A DNA stretch of 64,000 nucleotides from Planctomycetota bacterium (GCA_965223545.1 OZ245006.1:5120001-5184000), one strand, 5' to 3'; positions 15,821 to 64,000 are shown, numbered from the stretch's first letter. The notes: generated from the letters alone by a model not told the origin. Numbers and translations: made by a program.

Positions 15821-17323
15821 TCAGGACTCTTCCACAAGACCAGGGAAGTGTTCTTGCATGAGATCACCGATCGGGTGAGGTTGACGTGGGGATTCCACGG
15901 CCAGGCCTGTGGCGTCCATTGGGCGGCCACTCAAGTCCCTCGTCGTCGGAGTCCCCACTCGTCCCTGTCGCCGTTGGTCGCGCTCATGCCGCTGTGGCGC
16001 GACGATGCTGCGCGTGAACTTGGCTGCGATGAGCGCGCGCGCGGCAACCTTCGTGAGCTCGTTGCCGTCGGCGTCTCGCAGGACGTAGCGGACTTGCGTC
16101 GACGCCGGCTTGTCATCGGCGCGCTGGCTGTCGCGACGCTTCAGGAGGGCGTAGACGCGGCGCGCCATCTTGCCAGCCAATGCGATGAGGATGAGGTTGT
16201 GGTGATCACCTGCGGCGTAGCGGCGAGCGTAGTACGCCGCGAAATCCGGATCCCACTGGCGAGCGACGTCAGCTGCTAGGTAGAGGTACTTCTTGAGTAC
16301 TCGTTGGCCGGTTTTGGTGATTGGCATCGAGGGGTCGCTCATGCCCGTCTGCTTCCGGCGTGGACACAGTCCGCAGTAGCTCACGAACTTCTTGCCGTTC
16401 GAGAACCGCGCGATGTCGCCTACCAAGGCTTCGATGGCCGCAGCGATCGTGGGACCGACGCCGCGCAGTTGCTCGAGTGTTCGGTCAGGATCGACGCCCA
16501 GGTAGAGCTTCTTGATCTTTGCGTCGAGCTTGCGAACGTCCGTGTTCTTGCGCTCGATCTCATCCAGCTCGTACACCACATCCTCTTGGATGGCCTCGTA
16601 GTCGAACGGCATCTGCCCCGCAGCTCGCAGCTCAGCGTAGTACTCGGCGGCCTGTCGGCAGGACTCGAGCACGCGGTCGACCAAGCACGGGTCATGCGTT
16701 CCCTTGGATCGCTTCGTCAAGAAGCGCTCCAAGCGACTCTTCCCAAGGCCGACCGCTTTCACCGGATCGACGTAGCGCCGCAGAAACCCCATCTTAGCGG
16801 CACTGAACTTCTCTGCCCCCAAGGCCTTCATGAGGCTGGGATTCGCCAGTACCAGTATCGCGTGCACACGACGCTTGTGGTCGCTGAGCTCGCGCGCCAA
16901 CCGCTCACGCCGCTTCACGAGTCGACGGATCGTCGTCTCGTCGGCAGTTGGAACACGCAGCTGGTGGACGCCCTTTGGATCCATCTGCGGCAGACGCGCA
17001 GCGGCCTCGGCGTCTACTACGTCGGTTTTGGTGTGCTTGCTATAGAACTTCCGCAGGTCGCTCAGCTTCTGTGGTTTGCTCACGTAGATCTGGAACCCTG
17101 CGGCGTTCACGTGCGCCGCGATGGGCAGCCACGCCAACCCCGTTGGTTCCATCACGAAGCTCACCGGACCCTCGGCACCTTCCTGTGCACGGCGCAGCAG
17201 AAGGTCAATACCCTCACGGCTGTTCTCGACTGAAAACGGTCTGCCCCGAGACTTCGCACCATCCAGAACGACGGCTCGGTGCTTGCTCCTCAAGCCGAGA
17301 TCCAATCCAACGAATCGATTCAT
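15821..17323 (-). CDS. IS110-family DEDD recombinase/transposase with C-terminal extension
   Basis: VGLDLG (D), VMEPTG (E), KTDVVDA (D,D); Tnp domain LRGVGP...GDIARF....FVSYCGL.P...QTG; IALAGKMAR. Confidence 0.93.
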   Translation of the reverse strand: MNRFVGLDLGLRSKHRAVVLDGAKSRGRPFSVENSREGIDLLLRRAQEGAEGPVSFVMEPTGLAWLPIAAHVNAAGFQIYVSKPQKLSDLRKFYSKHTKTDVVDAEAAARLPQMDPKGVHQLRVPTADETTIRRLVKRRERLARELSDHKRRVHAILVLANPSLMKALGAEKFSAAKMGFLRRYVDPVKAVGLGKSRLERFLTKRSKGTHDPCLVDRVLESCRQAAEYYAELRAAGQMPFDYEAIQEDVVYELDEIERKNTDVRKLDAKIKKLYLGVDPDRTLEQLRGVGPTIAAAIEALVGDIARFSNGKKFVSYCGLCPRRKQTGMSDPSMPITKTGQRVLKKYLYLAADVARQWDPDFAAYYARRYAAGDHHNLILIALAGKMARRVYALLKRRDSQRADDKPASTQVRYVLRDADGNELTKVAARALIAAKFTRSIVAPQRHERDQRRQGRVGTPTTRDLSGRPMDATGLAVESPRQPHPIGDLMQEHFPGLVEES

Positions 17324-42142: not shown

Positions 42143-42181
42143 CGGGGGCCGCGATTGATGAATCGGAGCCTGACCTGAAAC

Positions 42182-43564
42182 TCACCCAGCCTCGGCGATC
42201 GGTATGAGCTTGTACCCGAGGGATTTAGCGTTCTGTCGGAGTCCGACGATGCGTCGCTGGGTGAAGCGCTCCTCGTAGGCCTTGGCGCCTTCGTCTACGT
42301 AGTCCTGGCCGAACTTCAGCATGCGGTAGATGAGCAGGGCCAGTTTGCGGGCGATGGCAAAGATGGCGACGTTGCCGTCCTTCGCGCGGGCGATCTTGCG
42401 GAAGTGTGCGCCGAGAGCTGTCTGAGTACGTTGGAGGGACAGGGCGGCCATCCGGAGGACCGTGGCGATCCTGCTGACCGCGATGTTGTTGCGGTGCTTC
42501 TTGATGCGCTTTCCACCCGAGACGGCTTGACGTGGGCACAGGCGTAGCCAGGAGACGAAGTGCTTCTCGGTCGGGAAAGCTTCGAGGTCGTAGCCGACCT
42601 CGGTGAGCACGATCATGGCCGTGCTCGGGCTGATACCGTCGATTCGCGTGAGATCACACCCGACGAGCCGGCAGAGGGCATCGCGAAGCTCCCGGCCGCC
42701 CTTCGTTCGGATGCTCCTCTCCTTGCGGGGGTCTGGATGCTCGGGGACGTCGGCCGTCTTGGCTTCCTCCGGTTGCAGGTCCTCGATCATCGCCATCAAT
42801 CGCTTCTCGACCGACTCGATCTCGTGGTCGGTGTGCTCGAGCATCCGCAAGCCCGAAGCGAGAGTGAAGATGTGCTCCTCGATCCAGGTCCCTTGCAAGT
42901 GATCCGCGAGCTCCTTCTCGGAGATCTTGCAGCGCGGATCACGCAGTCTGGCGAGCGCTCGAGGGTCGCGTTCACCAGCGAGAATCGCGCGGATGATCGC
43001 GAGGCCGGTCTTGCCGGTGATGTCCGTTACCGCGCGATGGATCGCCACGTTCATCTGATCCAGTGACCGCTGCATCAACTGCGTGTGGCGCGTGCGCTGC
43101 GCGATCAAAGACGCGGCATGGCGTTGCAGGGTCCGCAACGCACAGATGTCCTTCGGAGGCCGGAACGAAGCGCGAATGAGGCCATAGGTGTGTAGCTTCT
43201 GCAGCCAACTGCAATCGCTGGCATCGGACTTGGAGCGGCCCGGCACGTTCTTCACCTCGCGGGCATTCGCGAGGATGACCTCGAAGCCTCTCGACTCGAG
43301 TAGCTCGTAGACGGGAATCCAGTAGACATAGGTGCTCTCCATCGCGACGGATCGCACTCCGAGCTCCTCCAGCCAGTCCGCGAGCGCCTCTAGCTGGGGC
43401 GTCGTCGTTCCGAATCGCTTGATCGGACGACTGCCGTCGGGTGCTGCTGCGCACACCCAGTGCTCGCGGCTGCCGATGTCGATTCCGGCGGCGTTGGGCT
43501 TCACGACTGGCAATACTTCCGCTGCGGGCTTCTTGCCCTTCCTCGTTCTGCTCTTCCCAGCCAT
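42182..43564 (-). CDS. IS110-family recombinase/transposase (copy A)
   Basis: AGIDIG, AMESTY, KSDASD; IDGIS...F....FVSWL.LCP...SGGK; AIARKLA. Protein identical to 59897..61279. Confidence 0.95.
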   Translation of the reverse strand: MAGKSRTRKGKKPAAEVLPVVKPNAAGIDIGSREHWVCAAAPDGSRPIKRFGTTTPQLEALADWLEELGVRSVAMESTYVYWIPVYELLESRGFEVILANAREVKNVPGRSKSDASDCSWLQKLHTYGLIRASFRPPKDICALRTLQRHAASLIAQRTRHTQLMQRSLDQMNVAIHRAVTDITGKTGLAIIRAILAGERDPRALARLRDPRCKISEKELADHLQGTWIEEHIFTLASGLRMLEHTDHEIESVEKRLMAMIEDLQPEEAKTADVPEHPDPRKERSIRTKGGRELRDALCRLVGCDLTRIDGISPSTAMIVLTEVGYDLEAFPTEKHFVSWLRLCPRQAVSGGKRIKKHRNNIAVSRIATVLRMAALSLQRTQTALGAHFRKIARAKDGNVAIFAIARKLALLIYRMLKFGQDYVDEGAKAYEERFTQRRIVGLRQNAKSLGYKLIPIAEAG

Positions 43565-43814
43565 ACTTCATCCTCATTGTTGTGGTGGGCCCGGCCCGAG
43601 GCGGCGATCAAACGAATCTGACCTGCGGGAGTGGGCACGGCGACGTGCCCCTCACCAGTGAAGGATGGCCAACTCGGACCCAGACTGGCTCTGGGGCAAA
43701 CGTGCTCCAGTGGCTATTGGGGGCGTAGCTGCCGGGCCCCTCACACGTTCCCCTCCCCCTTCCTCAGCGGCTAGTTTCCTGCCCTGAAGGGCCGACAAAT
43801 CTGCCGGGGCAGGA
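43565..43814 (-). ncRNA. Candidate bridge RNA, IS110 element 2 copy A
   Basis: Same non-coding left end as copy B. Confidence 0.6.
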
Positions 43815-57067: not shown

Positions 57068-57874
57068 ATGGTTGGCATGCGCTTGATCTCCGTTGTCCTG
57101 TTGGCAGCTTCCGCGCCCTGCTTCGTTCTCTCGGAGCCGCGCCGCGAGCAGAGCGCCGTCGCGGTCCTTGGCACGTTTCACATGGCCAACCCCGGCCGTG
57201 ACGTGGTCAACGCAAACGTCGACGACGTGCTCTCCGAGGATCGTCAGCAGCAGCTCCAGGAGCTGTGTGACCTCTTGGCTGCCTTCGAACCGACGCACAT
57301 CGCGGTCGAGGCCGTGCCGGACCGCGCCGACGAGTTGGCGCGGCGCTACGCGGAGTACCGCGCCGGCACGCTGGAGCCCGATCGCAACGAGATCGTGCAG
57401 GTCGCGTTCCGCCTCGCGGACGCACTCGGGCACGAGCGCGTTTGGCCCGTGGACCATCGGCAGGACATGGCGATTGGCTCGGTGATGCAGTACGCGCAGC
57501 AGAACGACCCCGCCGCCGCCGCGCTGCTGGGCGAGTGGCGCGGGAAGATGCAGGCCACGCTGGACGAGGTCATGGCCAAACCGATCGTCGACATCTTCCG
57601 CTGGGCGAACCACCCCGACCGCGCCGCGGAGCACGACGCCGTCTACCTTCGCATGGCGCAGATCGGCGGTGGAGACACAATGGTCGGAGCGCAGGCGGTC
57701 GGCACATGGTACGCGCGCAACCTCGCGATCTTCGCGAACGTCGCCGCACTGGCCAGCGATCCTGACGCGCGGGTGCTGGTCCTGATCGGCGCCGGACACG
57801 CCCCTCTCCTCTGCGACTTCGTCCGCGGCGCGGACAACCTCGACCTGATCGACATCACCGAAGTCCTGAAGTGA
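57068..57874 (+). CDS. DUF5694-like exported protein
   Basis: VLGTFHMANPG.D, DDVLS..RQ, F.PTHIAVE, NEIVQ.AFRLA, WYARNL.IF.N, LIGAGH. Confidence 0.8.
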   Translation: MVGMRLISVVLLAASAPCFVLSEPRREQSAVAVLGTFHMANPGRDVVNANVDDVLSEDRQQQLQELCDLLAAFEPTHIAVEAVPDRADELARRYAEYRAGTLEPDRNEIVQVAFRLADALGHERVWPVDHRQDMAIGSVMQYAQQNDPAAAALLGEWRGKMQATLDEVMAKPIVDIFRWANHPDRAAEHDAVYLRMAQIGGGDTMVGAQAVGTWYARNLAIFANVAALASDPDARVLVLIGAGHAPLLCDFVRGADNLDLIDITEVLK

Positions 57875-57903
57875 CGGTACGGAGTCAGGCTCCGTACCGT
57901 CAG
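57871..57903. repeat. REP-like palindrome, unoccupied IS110 target homolog
   Basis: GTGACGGTACGGAGT-CAG-GCTCCGTACCGTCAG; 31/33 identical to the site reconstituted around IS110 copy B. Confidence 0.9.
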
Positions 57904-57921
57904 GCTCGGTACGGAGATCCG

Positions 57922-59697
57922 ATGGCACATGGCTTCGTTCGCTCGCTCGTCCCAGCCCTGGTCTTGATACCGGCACTGGCCGCAGCCACCCAAGACCGGT
58001 CGCAGCGGGCAGCCGAGGAACGTGCGCTGATCGAGGGGGCAGTGGGCGATCCGCTGTCGCAGCGCGCGGCCGAGGCGTTCAACAAGCGCGACTGGCAGGA
58101 GGCCGAGCGAGCCTACGCCGCGCTCGTCGAGCGGGACCCGGCCGACGAGCGCGCTTGGTTGCGGCTCGGAACGGCACTGCACGCGCAGCAGAAGCTGGAC
58201 GCGGCGCTGCGGGCGTACGAGCACGCACTGGACTTCCCCAGCGCTGCCTACAACGCCGCTTGCATCCATGCGCTGCGCGGCGCTACGGACTTGGCACTCG
58301 ACCGGCTCCGCTCCGCGGTTGAAGTTGGGTTCCTCGATTTCGAGCACGCGCGGCGCGACCCGGATCTGTCGAACCTGCACGAAGACCCGGCCTTCGCGGC
58401 CGTGCTCGCGGCGATGGAGCGGCGGATGAAGACGCCGCTGCCCGAGGCGGTCCTCGGTCAGGCCGCGCCCGACTTCGAGCTCACCGACGTCGACGGCCGA
58501 CGCCATCGGCTCGAGTCGTACCGTGGGCGAATCGTCGTCCTCGAATGGACGAGCCACACGTGCCCGACGGTTGCACGCTACCACGAGTCGGCGAGACTGC
58601 CGGCGTCGGTCGCCGGTGTGACCGGCGATGACCTCGTGTGGCTCGCCATCGACTCCGGCGCAGAATGTGACGAGTGGGTCGACGCGATCCGAGAGTGGCG
58701 CTCGACGGTCGGCCACCGCCGCCCCTACCTGCTGGACCCATCGGGCGCGACGGGTCACCGCTACGGAGCGCAGGCGACACCTCAGATTTTCGTGATCGAC
58801 GGTTCCGGAGTGCTGCGCTACTCGGGGACTGTCGACGACGAAGGCGCGACCATCGACTACGTCGCCGCGACGGTCGCGGCGTTGCGCGAGGGTCGCGACC
58901 CGGCACCGACTTCCACCGAGCTCCGTGGCTGCACGATCAAGTACGCATCGGTGCTGCCAGGATTCGTCGCTGCCGACGTGTGGCAGTGCCCGCCCTGCGG
59001 CCTGCCGTGCGATCGCATCGTGTTCGCGACGCCGGGCCGCTGCCCGCAGTGTCGCATGGTCCTGGCCGCTCGAGTGCGGCGCAACGTGCAGACCGCGGCG
59101 AAGCCACACGCACAGCCGTTGTTCGACGCGGCCCGGATCGCCGCAAGAGCGGGTGAAGCGCAGCCGTGTCTCGCGAGCTTGCGTGCCGCGTTGGTCGCCG
59201 GCTTCGCGACACCCTCCAGGGTTCTGAGCGACGACGCGTTCGCCCCGCTGCTCGCCGTGCCCGAACCGCGCGCGGCGCTCCGCGAGCTGTTGGCCGAGTT
59301 CGCGAGCGAGTCGACGGCGACCATTGTCCGCAGCACGGAGCCCGGCAATCGCCTGCGGCTCGAGCTCACGATTCATGAAGCGGCGGGTACGCCCGTCGTC
59401 GACGCGCGCGTGGACCTGTACCAGACCGACGCTGCGGGCATCTACGATCCGGTGCACGGTTCGGAGAACCCACGTCTGTTCGCCAGCCTCGTTAGCGATC
59501 GCGACGGCCGCCTGGTCATCGACACGATCGTGCCCGCGGGCTACCCGGACGCGGACGTCTCCCCGCACGTTCACTACGTCGTCGAGACTGCCGGCGGGAC
59601 ACGCGACAGCGGCGAGATCGTGAGGAGAGTGACGGTACGGAGCCAGTCCTGCCCCGGCAGATTTGTCGGCCCTTCAGGGCAGGAAACTAGCCGCTGA
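57922..59697 (+). CDS. Multidomain exported protein: TPR + redoxin + CxxC metal-binding + intradiol-dioxygenase-like; 3' end reads into IS110
   Basis: TPR (AWLRLG..L, YNAAC..AL.G), APDFELTD.DG...VVLEWTSHTCP, WQCPPC...C...PGRCPQC.M, YQTDAAG.Y..., TIVP..YP...PHVHY; last 17 or so codons come from the IS left end. Confidence 0.78.
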   Translation: MAHGFVRSLVPALVLIPALAAATQDRSQRAAEERALIEGAVGDPLSQRAAEAFNKRDWQEAERAYAALVERDPADERAWLRLGTALHAQQKLDAALRAYEHALDFPSAAYNAACIHALRGATDLALDRLRSAVEVGFLDFEHARRDPDLSNLHEDPAFAAVLAAMERRMKTPLPEAVLGQAAPDFELTDVDGRRHRLESYRGRIVVLEWTSHTCPTVARYHESARLPASVAGVTGDDLVWLAIDSGAECDEWVDAIREWRSTVGHRRPYLLDPSGATGHRYGAQATPQIFVIDGSGVLRYSGTVDDEGATIDYVAATVAALREGRDPAPTSTELRGCTIKYASVLPGFVAADVWQCPPCGLPCDRIVFATPGRCPQCRMVLAARVRRNVQTAAKPHAQPLFDAARIAARAGEAQPCLASLRAALVAGFATPSRVLSDDAFAPLLAVPEPRAALRELLAEFASESTATIVRSTEPGNRLRLELTIHEAAGTPVVDARVDLYQTDAAGIYDPVHGSENPRLFASLVSDRDGRLVIDTIVPAGYPDADVSPHVHYVVETAGGTRDSGEIVRRVTVRSQSCPGRFVGPSGQETSR

Positions 59698-59896
59698 GGA
59701 AGGGGGAGGGGAACGTGTGAGGGGCCCGGCAGCTACGCCCCCAATAGCCACTGGAGCACGTTTGCCCCAGAGCCAGTCTGGGTCCGAGTTGGCCATCCTT
59801 CACTGGTGAGGGGCACGTCGCCGTGCCCACTCCCGCAGGTCAGATTCGTTTGATCGCCGCCTCGGGCCGGGCCCACCACAACAATGAGGATGAAGT
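59647..59896 (+). ncRNA. Candidate bridge RNA, IS110 element 2 copy B
   Basis: Stems TCCTGCCC/GGGCAGGA, GGGCCCGGC(59722-59730)/GCCGGGCCC(59866-59874), GGGCACG/CGTGCCC; target-like GAGCCAG (59770-59776); donor-like CAGGTCAG (59836-59843). Confidence 0.65.
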
Positions 59897-61279
59897 ATGG
59901 CTGGGAAGAGCAGAACGAGGAAGGGCAAGAAGCCCGCAGCGGAAGTATTGCCAGTCGTGAAGCCCAACGCCGCCGGAATCGACATCGGCAGCCGCGAGCA
60001 CTGGGTGTGCGCAGCAGCACCCGACGGCAGTCGTCCGATCAAGCGATTCGGAACGACGACGCCCCAGCTAGAGGCGCTCGCGGACTGGCTGGAGGAGCTC
60101 GGAGTGCGATCCGTCGCGATGGAGAGCACCTATGTCTACTGGATTCCCGTCTACGAGCTACTCGAGTCGAGAGGCTTCGAGGTCATCCTCGCGAATGCCC
60201 GCGAGGTGAAGAACGTGCCGGGCCGCTCCAAGTCCGATGCCAGCGATTGCAGTTGGCTGCAGAAGCTACACACCTATGGCCTCATTCGCGCTTCGTTCCG
60301 GCCTCCGAAGGACATCTGTGCGTTGCGGACCCTGCAACGCCATGCCGCGTCTTTGATCGCGCAGCGCACGCGCCACACGCAGTTGATGCAGCGGTCACTG
60401 GATCAGATGAACGTGGCGATCCATCGCGCGGTAACGGACATCACCGGCAAGACCGGCCTCGCGATCATCCGCGCGATTCTCGCTGGTGAACGCGACCCTC
60501 GAGCGCTCGCCAGACTGCGTGATCCGCGCTGCAAGATCTCCGAGAAGGAGCTCGCGGATCACTTGCAAGGGACCTGGATCGAGGAGCACATCTTCACTCT
60601 CGCTTCGGGCTTGCGGATGCTCGAGCACACCGACCACGAGATCGAGTCGGTCGAGAAGCGATTGATGGCGATGATCGAGGACCTGCAACCGGAGGAAGCC
60701 AAGACGGCCGACGTCCCCGAGCATCCAGACCCCCGCAAGGAGAGGAGCATCCGAACGAAGGGCGGCCGGGAGCTTCGCGATGCCCTCTGCCGGCTCGTCG
60801 GGTGTGATCTCACGCGAATCGACGGTATCAGCCCGAGCACGGCCATGATCGTGCTCACCGAGGTCGGCTACGACCTCGAAGCTTTCCCGACCGAGAAGCA
60901 CTTCGTCTCCTGGCTACGCCTGTGCCCACGTCAAGCCGTCTCGGGTGGAAAGCGCATCAAGAAGCACCGCAACAACATCGCGGTCAGCAGGATCGCCACG
61001 GTCCTCCGGATGGCCGCCCTGTCCCTCCAACGTACTCAGACAGCTCTCGGCGCACACTTCCGCAAGATCGCCCGCGCGAAGGACGGCAACGTCGCCATCT
61101 TTGCCATCGCCCGCAAACTGGCCCTGCTCATCTACCGCATGCTGAAGTTCGGCCAGGACTACGTAGACGAAGGCGCCAAGGCCTACGAGGAGCGCTTCAC
61201 CCAGCGACGCATCGTCGGACTCCGACAGAACGCTAAATCCCTCGGGTACAAGCTCATACCGATCGCCGAGGCTGGGTGA
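59897..61279 (+). CDS. IS110-family recombinase/transposase (copy B)
   Basis: DEDD motifs and SGGK serine motif; identical to 42182..43564. Confidence 0.95.
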   Translation: MAGKSRTRKGKKPAAEVLPVVKPNAAGIDIGSREHWVCAAAPDGSRPIKRFGTTTPQLEALADWLEELGVRSVAMESTYVYWIPVYELLESRGFEVILANAREVKNVPGRSKSDASDCSWLQKLHTYGLIRASFRPPKDICALRTLQRHAASLIAQRTRHTQLMQRSLDQMNVAIHRAVTDITGKTGLAIIRAILAGERDPRALARLRDPRCKISEKELADHLQGTWIEEHIFTLASGLRMLEHTDHEIESVEKRLMAMIEDLQPEEAKTADVPEHPDPRKERSIRTKGGRELRDALCRLVGCDLTRIDGISPSTAMIVLTEVGYDLEAFPTEKHFVSWLRLCPRQAVSGGKRIKKHRNNIAVSRIATVLRMAALSLQRTQTALGAHFRKIARAKDGNVAIFAIARKLALLIYRMLKFGQDYVDEGAKAYEERFTQRRIVGLRQNAKSLGYKLIPIAEAG

Positions 61280-61312
61280 GTTTCAGGTCAGGCTCCGTAC
61301 CGTCACCCCTAC

Positions 61313-63301
61313 CCCAACTTCCGCAGTTCGACGGGTCGTCACGTTGAAAAGCAACGACTTACGTCGATTGGTTGGCACTACATCGCGGTCGAACGGAGTG
61401 GCGCGGGGACGGATAGCCTCCTGGGTAGCTGGATGCCGAGCCGGTCGAGCAGGTGCGCCTGCGCCTCGTTGGGGGTGACCACGCAGCGGACCCGGAGTTC
61501 GCGGCCGTCAGTAGTTGGCAGGAGCACGTCTGCGCTTTGGACCTGACGGAGCTCCTCGAGGATGGCGGCCGGGCTGTTGCCGAGTCCGGCCTTCTCCTGC
61601 CAGAGCTCGAGCGTTTTCCACAAGGCGTAGGCGAGGAAGCAGACGAGGATGTGCGCCCTGACCCGGTCCTCGCGTTGATGCCACACCGGGCGGATCGACA
61701 GCTCGGACTTCTGGATCCGAAACGCGGACTCAGCATCAGTGAGCTGGATGTACGTCCGCCAAAGCTCCTCATCTGTCCAACCCGTCACGTTGGACCTGAG
61801 CAGGTAGCACCCGGCGCTCTGGTCCACCCAGTTCGTGTTCTCACAAGCCTCCACGGCAAGCCCCGATGGTCGATCCGGGGCTTCGATCAACGAAACCGAG
61901 AAGCACGTGGAGGCCCGCGAGTTCTGGGCCAAGATGCGTCCGATCTGTTGATTGACGCGGTCCCGTTCGATCGACTTCTTCGACGCCGCCAGTCGGCGTT
62001 CGAGCGACGCAAGCCTCGCGCGAATGCGTTCGGCTGCTCGCGCGACAATTGCGGCGTCCTTCTCGATGCGCGCCTGGGAGCGACACAGGATGAACGTCTC
62101 CTCCCCGTCCTCGCTCGGGCAGAGCTTGACCTCGACATCCTCACGAATGCTGCGCCAGTCTCGACGGTCGACGATCTCCTGTTCGAAGCGGCGCAGGTCC
62201 GAACGCGATGCGCCGATGACGTACCGTCGCCTTCCCTCCTTCAACCATTTCAGGTTGCGCTTGCTCACCATTCCGCGGTCCATGACCCAGATGCGATCAG
62301 CAGCACCGAATCGCCGCTCCATCGTCTCGACGATCTCGCGGACCGTCGTGACGTCAGTCCGATTGCCGTCGAACACTTCGTGCGCAAGAGGGATTCCCTG
62401 TCTGGTCACGACCAGAGCGATGCAAACCTGTTTGCAGTCAGGCCGGTGATCTCGGCTGTAGCCACGCTGCGCCTGGGGGTTGCCCAGCATGAGGCCTTCG
62501 AAGTAGGTCGAGGTCACGTCGTAGAGCAGCAAGTCGTACTGAACGTCGAACAACTCGCCGAGCCGTGCGCGGAGATGCTGCTCCAGCGCCTCTTTGTGCG
62601 GCAGGATCTGGTCGAGAGCCCGGTAGAGCCGGTCGTCGTTGACCTTGCCTTCCGGCAGGCCAAGCAGGTCGTCAAGCGCGGTCTGGCGGTACAGGACTTC
62701 AGCCAGGTGCAGCTCGCTGGAGGGCATGCACAACCGACAGATGACCATCGCTGCCGCCATCGTCGACCACGGGACATCTTCACGGCCCCGCGGCATGAGC
62801 TCCCAGAGTGCGTCGTCGAACTTCAGTGCGTGCCACAGCGCCAGGCCGACGAAAACGTCGCCGAAGCGGCGTGTCCGGTCGAGGCTGACCTCCTTCAAGC
62901 GAATCGACTCGACCGGGTCGTCGTCTGTCACCGGTGGCTCAAACAGGCTCGGGTGCATTCGGCGACCGGTCATCCGATCTGCCAGCGCACGAGCCCGGCG
63001 TCGCCCCTTCGCATCCAGTTTGCCCAGCTGCGCGATCACCTCCTGCCGCACTCGACGACCGTGCCGCACCGACCGAACGAGGAGCCAGTACTCGTGGGTC
63101 TTGCCGTTCTTTCTGACCGTCTTGCGTCGCAGGTACACGTCCGCCGCCTCGCACACAGTTGTCGTGCTCCCTGCCACACCGATCAACGGGGCGGGTTGGC
63201 ACTACACGGCCGATCTGCGCCGCCGCGACGGTGGATAGCGGGCTGGCGCCGCGCCGAGGCTCCGAATTGGCCTCAAAAATCGTCGAGCTGCGGAAGTTGG
63301 G
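61313..63301 (-). mobile_element. IS1634-family insertion sequence
   Basis: Terminal IRs CCCAACTTCCGCAG(T/C)TCGACG, 20/21 (61313-61333, 63281-63301); flanking direct repeat CTAC (61309-61312, 63302-63305). Confidence 0.92.
61378..63138 (-). CDS. IS1634-family DDE transposase
   Basis: LYDVTSTYFEG, RGYSRDHRPDCKQV, VMDRGM, Y..L..AESAFR..K..L..RPVWHQ...RV.AHI.VCFLAY; GTG start at 63138. Confidence 0.94.
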   Translation of the reverse strand: MYLRRKTVRKNGKTHEYWLLVRSVRHGRRVRQEVIAQLGKLDAKGRRRARALADRMTGRRMHPSLFEPPVTDDDPVESIRLKEVSLDRTRRFGDVFVGLALWHALKFDDALWELMPRGREDVPWSTMAAAMVICRLCMPSSELHLAEVLYRQTALDDLLGLPEGKVNDDRLYRALDQILPHKEALEQHLRARLGELFDVQYDLLLYDVTSTYFEGLMLGNPQAQRGYSRDHRPDCKQVCIALVVTRQGIPLAHEVFDGNRTDVTTVREIVETMERRFGAADRIWVMDRGMVSKRNLKWLKEGRRRYVIGASRSDLRRFEQEIVDRRDWRSIREDVEVKLCPSEDGEETFILCRSQARIEKDAAIVARAAERIRARLASLERRLAASKKSIERDRVNQQIGRILAQNSRASTCFSVSLIEAPDRPSGLAVEACENTNWVDQSAGCYLLRSNVTGWTDEELWRTYIQLTDAESAFRIQKSELSIRPVWHQREDRVRAHILVCFLAYALWKTLELWQEKAGLGNSPAAILEELRQVQSADVLLPTTDGRELRVRCVVTPNEAQAHLLDRLGIQLPRRLSVPAPLRSTAM

Positions 63302-64000
63302 CTACCAGTCGTCGCGGAATCGGAGGACGCGGTCGCGCATGGCGTGGTAGACCGCGGTGGTCGCGCGCACGTCGTGGGCGTTGTACTCGCAGATGCGCTG
63401 CAGCTGGCCTGCCTCGTAGGCCGGTGCCACCATCGAGCCGTCCATCGATTCCTTCGGGCTCTCGATGCCCAGTGCCCAGCACAGCACGTCCAGGTTGGCG
63501 GGGCCGGCGATGCGCTCGCCGTGCGCCAGCACGCGGTGCAGGTCGAGGTGCGGGCGTAGGCCGAAGCGATTGCCCAGCAGGTCGACGCGCGCGGGGACGT
63601 CGAGGAGGAGGCTGCGCACGACCAGAAAGGGCACGTCGAAGCCGCGGCCGTTGAAGCTGACCACGGTCTCGGCCAGCGCCGCCAGCGACCACCACGCCTC
63701 GAGCAAGTCGCGCTCGGGCATGGGGCGAATCCACTCCGGCAGGTCGTCGCTTGCGGCGCCGTCGCGGGGGACCGCGAGCACGGTCACCGGTTGGTCTTTG
63801 GGGTCGAGGTCGCCGTTGCCCACCGCGATCGAAACGACCTTGCCGAACAGCGGCGAAAGCCCCATCAGCTTGGCCTCGTCCGAGTCGAAGCGCTCGGCGT
63901 GGCGCGCCAGCGCCTCGGCGACCGTCGTCGGCAGCGCGCGGCGGTGGGTCGCCGGCACGGTTTCGATGTCGAACACCAGCGTCGGACAGACGAGATCGCG
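63302..64000 (-). CDS. PolB-like 3'-5' exonuclease domain protein (5' end outside window)
   Basis: LVFDIETVP, SFNGRGFDVPFL, HLDL, LG..SPK..MDG..V, I.EYN..DV.AT. Confidence 0.85.
   Translation of the reverse strand, partial: RDLVCPTLVFDIETVPATHRRALPTTVAEALARHAERFDSDEAKLMGLSPLFGKVVSIAVGNGDLDPKDQPVTVLAVPRDGAASDDLPEWIRPMPERDLLEAWWSLAALAETVVSFNGRGFDVPFLVVRSLLLDVPARVDLLGNRFGLRPHLDLHRVLAHGERIAGPANLDVLCWALGIESPKESMDGSMVAPAYEAGQLQRICEYNAHDVRATTAVYHAMRDRVLRFRDDW

Follow-up and report, generated by a model that had tools for sequence, protein, structure and literature searches.

An IS110-family element with a putative upstream guide RNA inserted at the centre of REP-like palindromes in a planctomycete genome

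The analysed DNA (the window) is a 64,000-nt stretch of a Planctomycetota bacterium (GCA_965223545.1, OZ245006.1:5120001-5184000), given as one strand and equivalent to C1:5120001-5184000 of an 8.1-Mb genome with two contigs and 70% G+C. All positions are counted from its first letter unless a genome coordinate (C1) is given. Close to the right end of the window, an insertion sequence (IS) of the IS110 family separates the two arms of a palindrome that resembles a repetitive extragenic palindrome (REP). A model-made first-pass annotation had drawn attention to this locus. It had also taken the source for a probable planctomycete; Pfam PF07596, a family expanded in planctomycetes, had 0 matches in this genome and none in the control genomes either, and is hardly informative on this point. 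The element and its immediate surroundings comprise the following features:

59647-61291, plus strand: IS110-family insertion sequence, 1645 bp including the right core copy AG (61290-61291)
59897-61279, plus strand: open reading frame (ORF) of the transposase (putative bridge recombinase), 460 aa, with conserved D29, E76, D114, D117 and S349
59629-59644, plus strand: left REP arm (left target) GTGACGGTACGGAGCC; GAGCCAG is found at 23/23 left junctions
59645-59646, plus strand: left core dinucleotide AG (CT on the minus strand), assigned from filled and empty sites, a tandem junction and the guides
61284-61291, plus strand: left donor and core CAGGTCAG, core AG at 61290-61291
61292-61306, plus strand: right REP arm (right target) GCTCCGTACCGTCAC; GCTCC follows 22/23 copies

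Element boundaries were read from filled copies in comparison with 85 empty sites of the same genome. In the window, GTGACGGTACGGAGCC (59629-59644) is followed by AG (59645-59646) and by the element, which begins with TCCTGCC at 59647, terminates with GTTTCAGGTC-AG (61280-61291) and is followed by GCTCCGTACCGTCAC (61292-61306). The last 5 nt of the left arm plus AG form the guide-matched part of the site, and a TGA is located at 59630-59632. Deletion of 59647-61291 restores a 33-nt palindrome, as had been stated in the first-pass annotation for this copy (its copy B). The 3-nt CAG loop drawn there could not be retained: C and G of this loop also pair, which leaves a single central A/T in the duplex palindrome. 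The very ends of the element are devoid of terminal inverted repeats, and the junctions share only AG plus a C that is common to left flank and right element end by chance. The non-coding left end comprises 250 nt (59647-59896), the right end 12 nt beyond the stop codon.

The transposase was matched by Pfam PF01548 (E = 1.3e-26) and PF02371 (E = 4.7e-14) and by NCBIfam NF033542 'IS110 family RNA-guided transposase' (247.9 bits, cut-off 140), which confirmed the earlier family assignment. Alignment to the IS621 recombinase (chain 8wt6_A) was weak (E = 2.3e-10); E = 2.7e-9 was obtained with the solved ISCro4 recombinase. In the IS621 alignment, D29, E76, D114, D117 and S349 are aligned with the DEDD and Ser catalytic positions. 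E76, D114, D117 and S349 were invariant in an alignment of 20 relatives, and D29 was at least 90% conserved.

A BLASTN search of the genome yielded 23 full copies (99.1-100% identity) and, near 988 kb, one fragment. Seventeen copies are 1645 bp and six 1646 bp long. They represent six distinct sequences, with 12/23 copies identical, and the ORF is open in all 23, with no internal stop. The earlier impression of recent activity is in line with these numbers. Flanks of all copies were aligned, as had been proposed, and were not unrelated: GAGCCAG/TCCTG is present at the left junction of 23/23 and GGTCAG/GCTCC at the right junction of 22/23 copies (these 22 are referred to as regular). On the left, 21/23 copies are preceded by GTACGGAGCCAG, one by AATCGGAGCCAG and one by GTACCGAGCCAG. 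The latter two atypical arms retain exactly the 7 nt that match the guide described below, and the bases common to all 23 left flanks are exactly these seven. Insertion orientation relative to the central A/T of the palindrome is always the same.

The right flank is GCTCCGTAC in 8/22 regular copies, by which arms longer than the ~7-bp core are rebuilt. Other right arms are found in 14/22 (e.g. GCTCCGATTCATCA, GATTCATCA and CGTTCATCA). One of these is the second copy in the window:

42170-43814, minus strand: copy A of the element, with flanks GAAAGTACGGAGCC-AG and AG-GCTCCGATTCATCA

Upon deletion, copy A restores the same palindrome core as copy B, as had been noted before, and not the long arms.

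In 40 genomes of the same family or order no close relative of the element was found (best 38% identity, in one genome). A recent burst fits its spread, because the copies are near-identical and the 40 nearest genomes are without the element. Loose contig ends in three public runs labelled as other organisms match flanks of copies of this genome; the three runs therefore contain this organism or a very close one, and do not count as independent evidence of spread.

Uninterrupted GGAGCCAGGCTCC sites (GGAGCC-A-GGCTCC), oriented by the central A, occur 85 times in the genome, and 79/85 are preceded by GTAC. The consensus of 85 empty and 22 filled sites is TGAACGTACGGAGCC-A-GGCTCCGATTCATCA, and its central A/T is the only asymmetric position of the palindrome. 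TGA is present in the left arm of 54/85 and TCA in the right arm of 71/85 empty sites, and 14 pairs of REP sites are located less than 150 nt apart. The claim of one fixed insertion point in the centre of a REP-like palindrome, with filled and empty sites side by side, was thus upheld across the genome (23/23 left junctions, 22/23 right junctions, 85 empty sites). One could also assign the arms to the element itself, as its terminal inverted repeats or as its target duplication or footprint, with no pre-existing host repeat, since they flank every copy. This explanation is refuted by the 85 uninterrupted sites without element and is extremely improbable. It is also at odds with the variation of the arms beyond the core between copies, with junctions that share AG only, and with the location of a gene related to REP-associated tyrosine transposases (RAYT) between two such repeats.

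The latter gene was detected when the genome was searched for Y1 transposases with Pfam, as a 333-aa ORF at C1:3914532-3915533 (1933-2934 of locus L173). It was matched by PF01797 with 37.8 bits (cut-off 23); its best NCBIfam match was 'REP-associated tyrosine transposase' (REP_Tyr_transpos) with 63.5 bits, below the model cut-off of 80. The gene is flanked by GCTCCAATTCATCA and the inverse TGATGAATCGGAGC, that is, by two inverted REP halves. Because a RAYT-like gene lies between two of them, the target palindromes look like true REPs. Both halves around the gene are interrupted by IS110 copies facing each other. These copies may block REP or RAYT mobility, and with both REPs occupied, two kinds of selfish elements compete for the same repeats.

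A further palindrome lies upstream of the element:

57871-57903, plus strand: unoccupied variant REP GTGACGGTACGGAGTCAGGCTCCGTACCGTCAG, in which T replaces the guide-expected C beside the core

This 31/33 homolog had been presented as the empty counterpart of the insertion site. It is indeed present and unoccupied, and represents a rare variant (GGAGTCAGG / GGAGTCAGGCTCC, 2 in the genome) with a guide mismatch adjacent to the core rather than a typical empty site. An alternative boundary that was built on this variant (59643-61287, target GGAG^TCAGG) is refuted by the 85 regular GGAGCCAGGCTCC sites. A DUF5694 gene (57068-57874) ends at a TGA (57872-57874) inside the arm of the variant (window 57868-57906), and the repeat seems to be located directly at the ends of genes.

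For RNA analysis, relatives were collected by protein search, which gave thousands of sequences at ~58% identity (7954 of 8000 scored candidates with E <= 1e-20). The best relative in a metagenome scan had 61% identity, and the 72-83% relatives of the protein search were not returned there. Loci of relatives were taken from named genome assemblies (72) and from metagenomes (80), and element ends were read directly in nine genomes with several copies. The left ends could be aligned well, and a profile from nine of them recovered a ~155-nt region upstream of the transposase (83, then 122 nhmmer hits). Five helices were obtained by RNAalifold from 41 distinct sequences. Here, 94.3% of cells were paired, compared to 34-57% with the partners slid by 1-3 columns. 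Compensatory changes were present in 24/33 pairs, and 0/500 shuffles were as high. On this comparative evidence, the left end encodes a conserved structured RNA of bridge-RNA-like type, which would be expressed and bound by the protein. Its predicted parts are:

59720-59876, plus strand: bridge-RNA core with a three-way junction (nhmmer conservation, RNAalifold and pair counts)
59720-59730 with approximately 59866-59876, plus strand: closing helix P1 (RNAalifold)
59737-59740 with 59780-59783, plus strand: stem P2 of the target loop, with hairpin 59753-59768 (RNAalifold)
59784-59788 with 59861-59865, plus strand: stem P3 of the donor loop, with hairpin 59805-59834 (RNAalifold)
59741-59752, plus strand: 5' strand of the target loop CCAATAGCCACT, CAYT nearly invariant
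59770-59776, plus strand: putative target guide GAGCCAG in the 3' strand of the target loop, identical to left flank plus core
59777-59778, plus strand: handshake-like dinucleotide TC, identical to the first two bases of the element
59836-59843, plus strand: putative donor guide CAGGTCAG in the donor loop (3' strand), with the same sequence as the final 8 nt of the element (61284-61291)

Both arms of the RNA are built in the order stem, strand, hairpin, strand, stem, which is also the order in the IS621 loops (Hiraizumi 2024). Two stretches vary among relatives within conserved surroundings, namely the 3' strands of the first and of the second loop. For the first, the 7-mer of each target guide was sought 50-130 nt upstream of the RNA. 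A relative's own 7-mer was present at the left junction in 37/79 instances (24/37 types), compared to 21/1580 with swapped guides, and where it was found, a conserved GC-rich motif starts the element at a fixed distance. The donor guide's own 7-mer was present at the right end in 61/66 instances (29/34 types), compared to 10/1320 with swapped guides. The first base of the handshake-like dinucleotide equals base 1 of the element in 40/47 unique relatives (24 C-C, 15 T-T) and the second base equals base 2 in 17/47. The target guide would pair with the bottom strand. On the opposite side of the target loop, AGC (59746-59748) could pair with GCT of the right flank and CT with the core AG. Among relatives, the base beside CA pairs with base 1 of the right flank in 45/88 unique pairs and the following positions with bases 2-4 in 34, 31 and 32/88, respectively (off-register ~13-32/88). 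The proposal of an RNA-guided recombinase is supported by these comparisons, with a conserved structured RNA whose loops match target and donor.

In several relatives, found in an Opitutales metagenome-assembled genome (MAG; L026-L043) and in Versatilivorator and Terriglobia MAGs (L042-L046), the target guide corresponds to the right end of sister elements (GTTTCA....AG), so that one element inserts at the end of another and head-to-tail arrays are formed.

The core is the dinucleotide AG, not CAG. AG ends the target guide in 120/121 and the donor guide in 121/121 relatives. A tandem duplication at C1:4826050-4829720 contains copies at 4826231 and 4828049, with an identical stretch of 173 nt in front of each. 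At the right end of the first copy, the junction is GGTC-AG-CAGACACC; 175 nt upstream, GCCGT-AG-CAGACACC is found as the parental sequence. This places the exchange inside AG after T, not after C, and supports a core of 2 nt. The 3-nt core CAG of the first-pass annotation was rejected on both grounds, and AG, which it had listed as an alternative, was retained. The novel junction of the duplication is located at a site unlike the target and looks like an off-target event or an unequal sister exchange by the recombinase.

In the earlier description, this core was also called 'non-CT'. In IS621 and its relatives the conserved core is CT, of which the T is recognised through the protein backbone (Hiraizumi 2024). 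The AG of the gene strand corresponds to CT on the opposite strand. Read on the minus strand, the target is ..GGAGC-CT-GGCTC.. and the donor GGCAGGA-CT-GACCTG. In the IS621 designer code (Durrant 2024 supplement), the 5' guide is target[:9] and the 3' guide revcomp(target[7:]), followed by the handshake revcomp(donor p6p7). Applied to the minus strand, this scheme predicts GAGCC+AG followed by TC, and CAGGTC+AG as donor 3' guide, which are the sequences at 59770-59778 and 59836-59843. Because guide order and handshake fit the IS621 scheme on the other strand, 'non-CT' is probably an effect of strand labelling. By this analogy, we think that members of this subfamily bind their DNA mirrored with respect to the gene; the strand opposite the gene would be the top strand in the chemical sense.

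Alternatively, AG on the gene strand could be the true core. The long guides would then be left-target and left-donor guides that were moved to the 3' strands of the loops, and chemistry or strand order would differ from IS621. The long guides do match IS621-like partners in the same sense (flank of the left end, right end of the element), and the non-coding region lies upstream as in the IS110 group (Siddiquee 2024). On the other hand, the 2 nt after the target guide act as an IS621 handshake only on the other strand, CT is the core conserved in IS621 relatives (Hiraizumi 2024), and a strand flip has a precedent in the reversed guide order of IS1111-type RNAs (Siddiquee 2024). We regard a true AG core as possible, though rather doubtful.

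Taken together, the comparisons make it very probable that 59647-61291 is an active-looking IS110-family element with a bridge-RNA/seekRNA-guided DEDD/Ser recombinase system. The element would be excised as a circle with the junction GTTTCAGGTC-AG-TCCTGCC (predicted junction GTTTCAGGTCAGTCCTGCC), a sequence that follows from the element boundaries. The ~155-nt structured left-end RNA (59720-59876) would bind the recombinase. GAGCCAG + TC of its target loop would read the left half of the REP centre together with the core; once the strands have been exchanged, it would read the element's first bases. The segment AGC..CU on the opposite side of this loop would probably read the right half GCT and the core. 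By the second loop, CAGGTCAG, the right end of the element would be read. Recombination at AG (CT on the other strand) would set the single orientation at the central A/T of GGAGCC-A-GGCTCC.

Several observations weigh against this reading. An Rfam scan of 59500-61400 (E <= 10) gave chance-level matches only and no bridge-RNA family, and the single-sequence fold of the left end was only weakly better than shuffles (z = -1.97); for these two reasons the RNA evidence was drawn from relatives. The target guide is present at fewer than half of the left junctions (37/79), and many relatives lie at imperfect or unresolved sites. The right-flank guide is weak, with 3 nt here and ~35-51% pairing in relatives compared to ~25% background. 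For a right-donor guide, the 5' strand of the donor loop was compared with the first 12 nt of the element in antisense and same sense, and conservation only, no covariation, was observed. The same-sense guides are located on the 3' strands of the loops, in IS621 on the 5' strands. One copy (C1:4826231-4827875) is without the GCTCC right flank. A search of the assembly for a circle or tandem junction gave 0 matches at up to 1 mismatch. Among the public runs listed as containing the stretch there was no RNA run, and the four runs compared consisted of contigs.

How the right half of the target is read was assessed by genome-wide counts. GAGCCAG occurs 1969 times in the genome. In 24 cases it is followed by TCTGG, mostly the guide inside copies, and in 25 by TCCTG, 23 of which are left junctions of the element. 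Free GAGCCAG followed by GCTCC occurs only 86 times, and 22/22 regular insertions are at such sites. Because few GAGCCAG have GCTCC and yet all regular insertions do, something must read the right half. GAGCCAG+GCT is found at ~126 places in the genome, 108 of which are these REPs. Most matches of 7+3 nt are thus at REPs, and RNA pairing alone could explain the pattern.

Inverted repeats are also present within the element, at or close to both ends:

59647-59684, plus strand: terminal hairpin of the left end, arms TCCTGCCC / GGGCAGGA, 8 nt perfectly complementary
59683-59692, plus strand: left subterminal inverted repeat GAAACTAGCC, partner of 61275-61284
61275-61284, plus strand: right subterminal inverted repeat GGTGAGTTTC, ending 7 nt short of the element end

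The arm of the terminal hairpin begins at base 1 of the element. In 6 variant copies, the inner CCGGCA/TGTCGG stem is made perfect by a G>A change and an additional T. The left subterminal repeat is located 33-44 nt from the left end in 38/38 unique relatives. Across these 38, a relative's own pairs of ~7-10 bp have a mean of 7.8/10 matches, compared to 6.5 when swapped, and the bases beyond GAAAC covary between left and right ends.

In addition to RNA pairing, the palindrome itself might be necessary for targeting, as hairpin or cruciform or by easier central melting. In favour of such gating by structure, 22/22 regular insertions are at a palindrome centre, the RNA guide for the right half is short, and the variant site 57871-57903 folds strongly as single-stranded DNA (-16 kcal/mol, z = -6.1, 0/200 shuffles as good). 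The donor junction, too, is set in inverted repeats (terminal hairpin 59647-59684 and the subterminal repeats), and a stem-loop at the target was described as a second layer of specificity for ISPpu10 (ISPpu10 preprint). Against it, the palindrome is only a ~7-bp core at 14/22 sites, and relatives that share the RNA architecture use sites without a palindrome (e.g. CAAGCC-AG in a Bryobacterales MAG). With 108 REPs among the ~126 GAGCCAG+GCT sites, a structural term is also unnecessary. We consider a requirement for DNA structure unlikely.

The neighbourhood of the element contains further mobile DNA. A second, unrelated IS of ~2.0 kb adjoins the right REP arm (61305-63310). It has terminal inverted repeats of approximately TAGCCCAACTTCCGCAG and encodes a 602-aa DDE_Tnp_1 transposase on the minus strand (61378-63186). 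Eight copies at 99.7-100% identity are present in the genome, and the other copies are not beside REPs. In a decayed composite at C1:988107-988640, a degenerate DDE IS copy is linked to the IS110 fragment, in which 114 nt around the ORF start are fused with the right-terminal ~12 nt. In sequencing run X2, examined for 59200-61700, contig depth was 68.6 for the IS110 element compared to 7.3 for the unique flank (~9x), and 132 for the DDE IS (~18x). These depths disagree with the 23 IS110 and 8 DDE IS copies of the assembly, which may be a property of contig depth or a difference between samples. A different IS110-family transposase is encoded at 15821-17323 on the minus strand (500 aa, PF01548 + PF02371, ~26% identity to the one studied here); for this second type, 11 places were listed in the genome search. 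On the left, a gene with TPR, redoxin and Dioxygenase_C matches (57925-59697) continues across the REP arm and for 17 codons within the IS. Because its Dioxygenase_C match is partial (profile positions 13-99 of 182), the gene seems to be truncated at the mobile-element cluster.

RNA-guided IS110 recombinases are under development for genome writing, for which natural diversity of RNA scaffolds is useful. The genome represents a natural experiment with 23 intact copies, ~85 unused cognate sites, ~1,900 unused half-matching sites and one off-target rearrangement. The RNA family suggests that guide position and core strand can differ from IS621 while the RNA remains upstream.

That IS110 elements target REPs has long been known (Durrant 2024, PMC11208160; ISPpu10 preprint), their guide RNAs are established, and the known mechanism is unchanged by the present data. 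IS621 of E. coli inserts into REP like the present element (Durrant 2024, PMC11208160). Both encode a DEDD + Ser recombinase with the same Pfam domains, downstream of a long non-coding left end, and the right end is very short in both. Both have an RNA, here predicted, with two internal loops matching target and donor, in which the 2-nt core is included (Hiraizumi 2024), and a handshake dinucleotide after the 3' guide. The two differ in protein, with low similarity (E = 2.3e-10) and 460 aa compared to 328 in the solved IS621 chain. Unlike IS621, the element has its two loops on a common closing helix with a three-way junction, its core is AG on the gene strand (CT opposite), and subterminal inverted repeats of ~7-10 bp are present. 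The guide order is reversed compared to IS621, so that part of the mechanism is transferred here only by analogy.

ISPpu10 and ISPpu9 of Pseudomonas putida are likewise multi-copy elements at one point of REPs, in one orientation and with many empty REPs (ISPpu10 preprint; PMC12288879). There, REPs are often inverted pairs, which resembles the 14 close pairs found here. For ISPpu10, a CT duplication at the target and a stem-loop on its 5' side are described, whereas the crossover of the present element is at the palindrome centre. In contrast to ISPpu10 and ISPpu9, the element is known from sequence alone.

IS1111-type and IS110-type RNAs have opposite orders of top- and bottom-strand matches (Siddiquee 2024). 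In IS1111-type elements (ISEc11, ISPa11, ISKpn4; seekRNA), the top-strand complement lies 5' of the bottom-strand match, as in the present element, which does not follow the order of the IS110 group (ISEc21, IS621), with the bottom-strand match 5' of the top-strand complement. Subterminal inverted repeats are a further likeness to IS1111; the right one stops 7 nt short of the element end, reminiscent of the 7-bp terminal extension in IS1111 elements (Siddiquee 2024). The repeats are shorter and less perfect than the 11-13 bp of IS1111 with their 7-bp and 3-bp extensions, and the left one, preceded by a hairpin, is located 33-44 nt from the end of the element. The non-coding region is downstream of the gene in nearly all IS1111 elements (Siddiquee 2024) and upstream in the present element. 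Exceptions to the rule on RNA location exist, e.g. ISMtsp17 (Siddiquee 2024). An element with upstream RNA and reversed guide order was not found described in the literature covered, and the partly searched supplements of Durrant 2024 may hold relevant bridge-RNA models. Tentatively, and with less than even confidence, the element and its relatives may be placed in a large undescribed subfamily, with the upstream RNA of the IS110 group, the guide order and subterminal repeats of the IS1111 group, a three-way junction and a CT core opposite the gene. If true, its complex of recombinase and RNA would bind target and donor mirrored relative to its gene, and the 23 filled and 85 empty sites with one off-target duplication would represent a specificity data set for a new scaffold.

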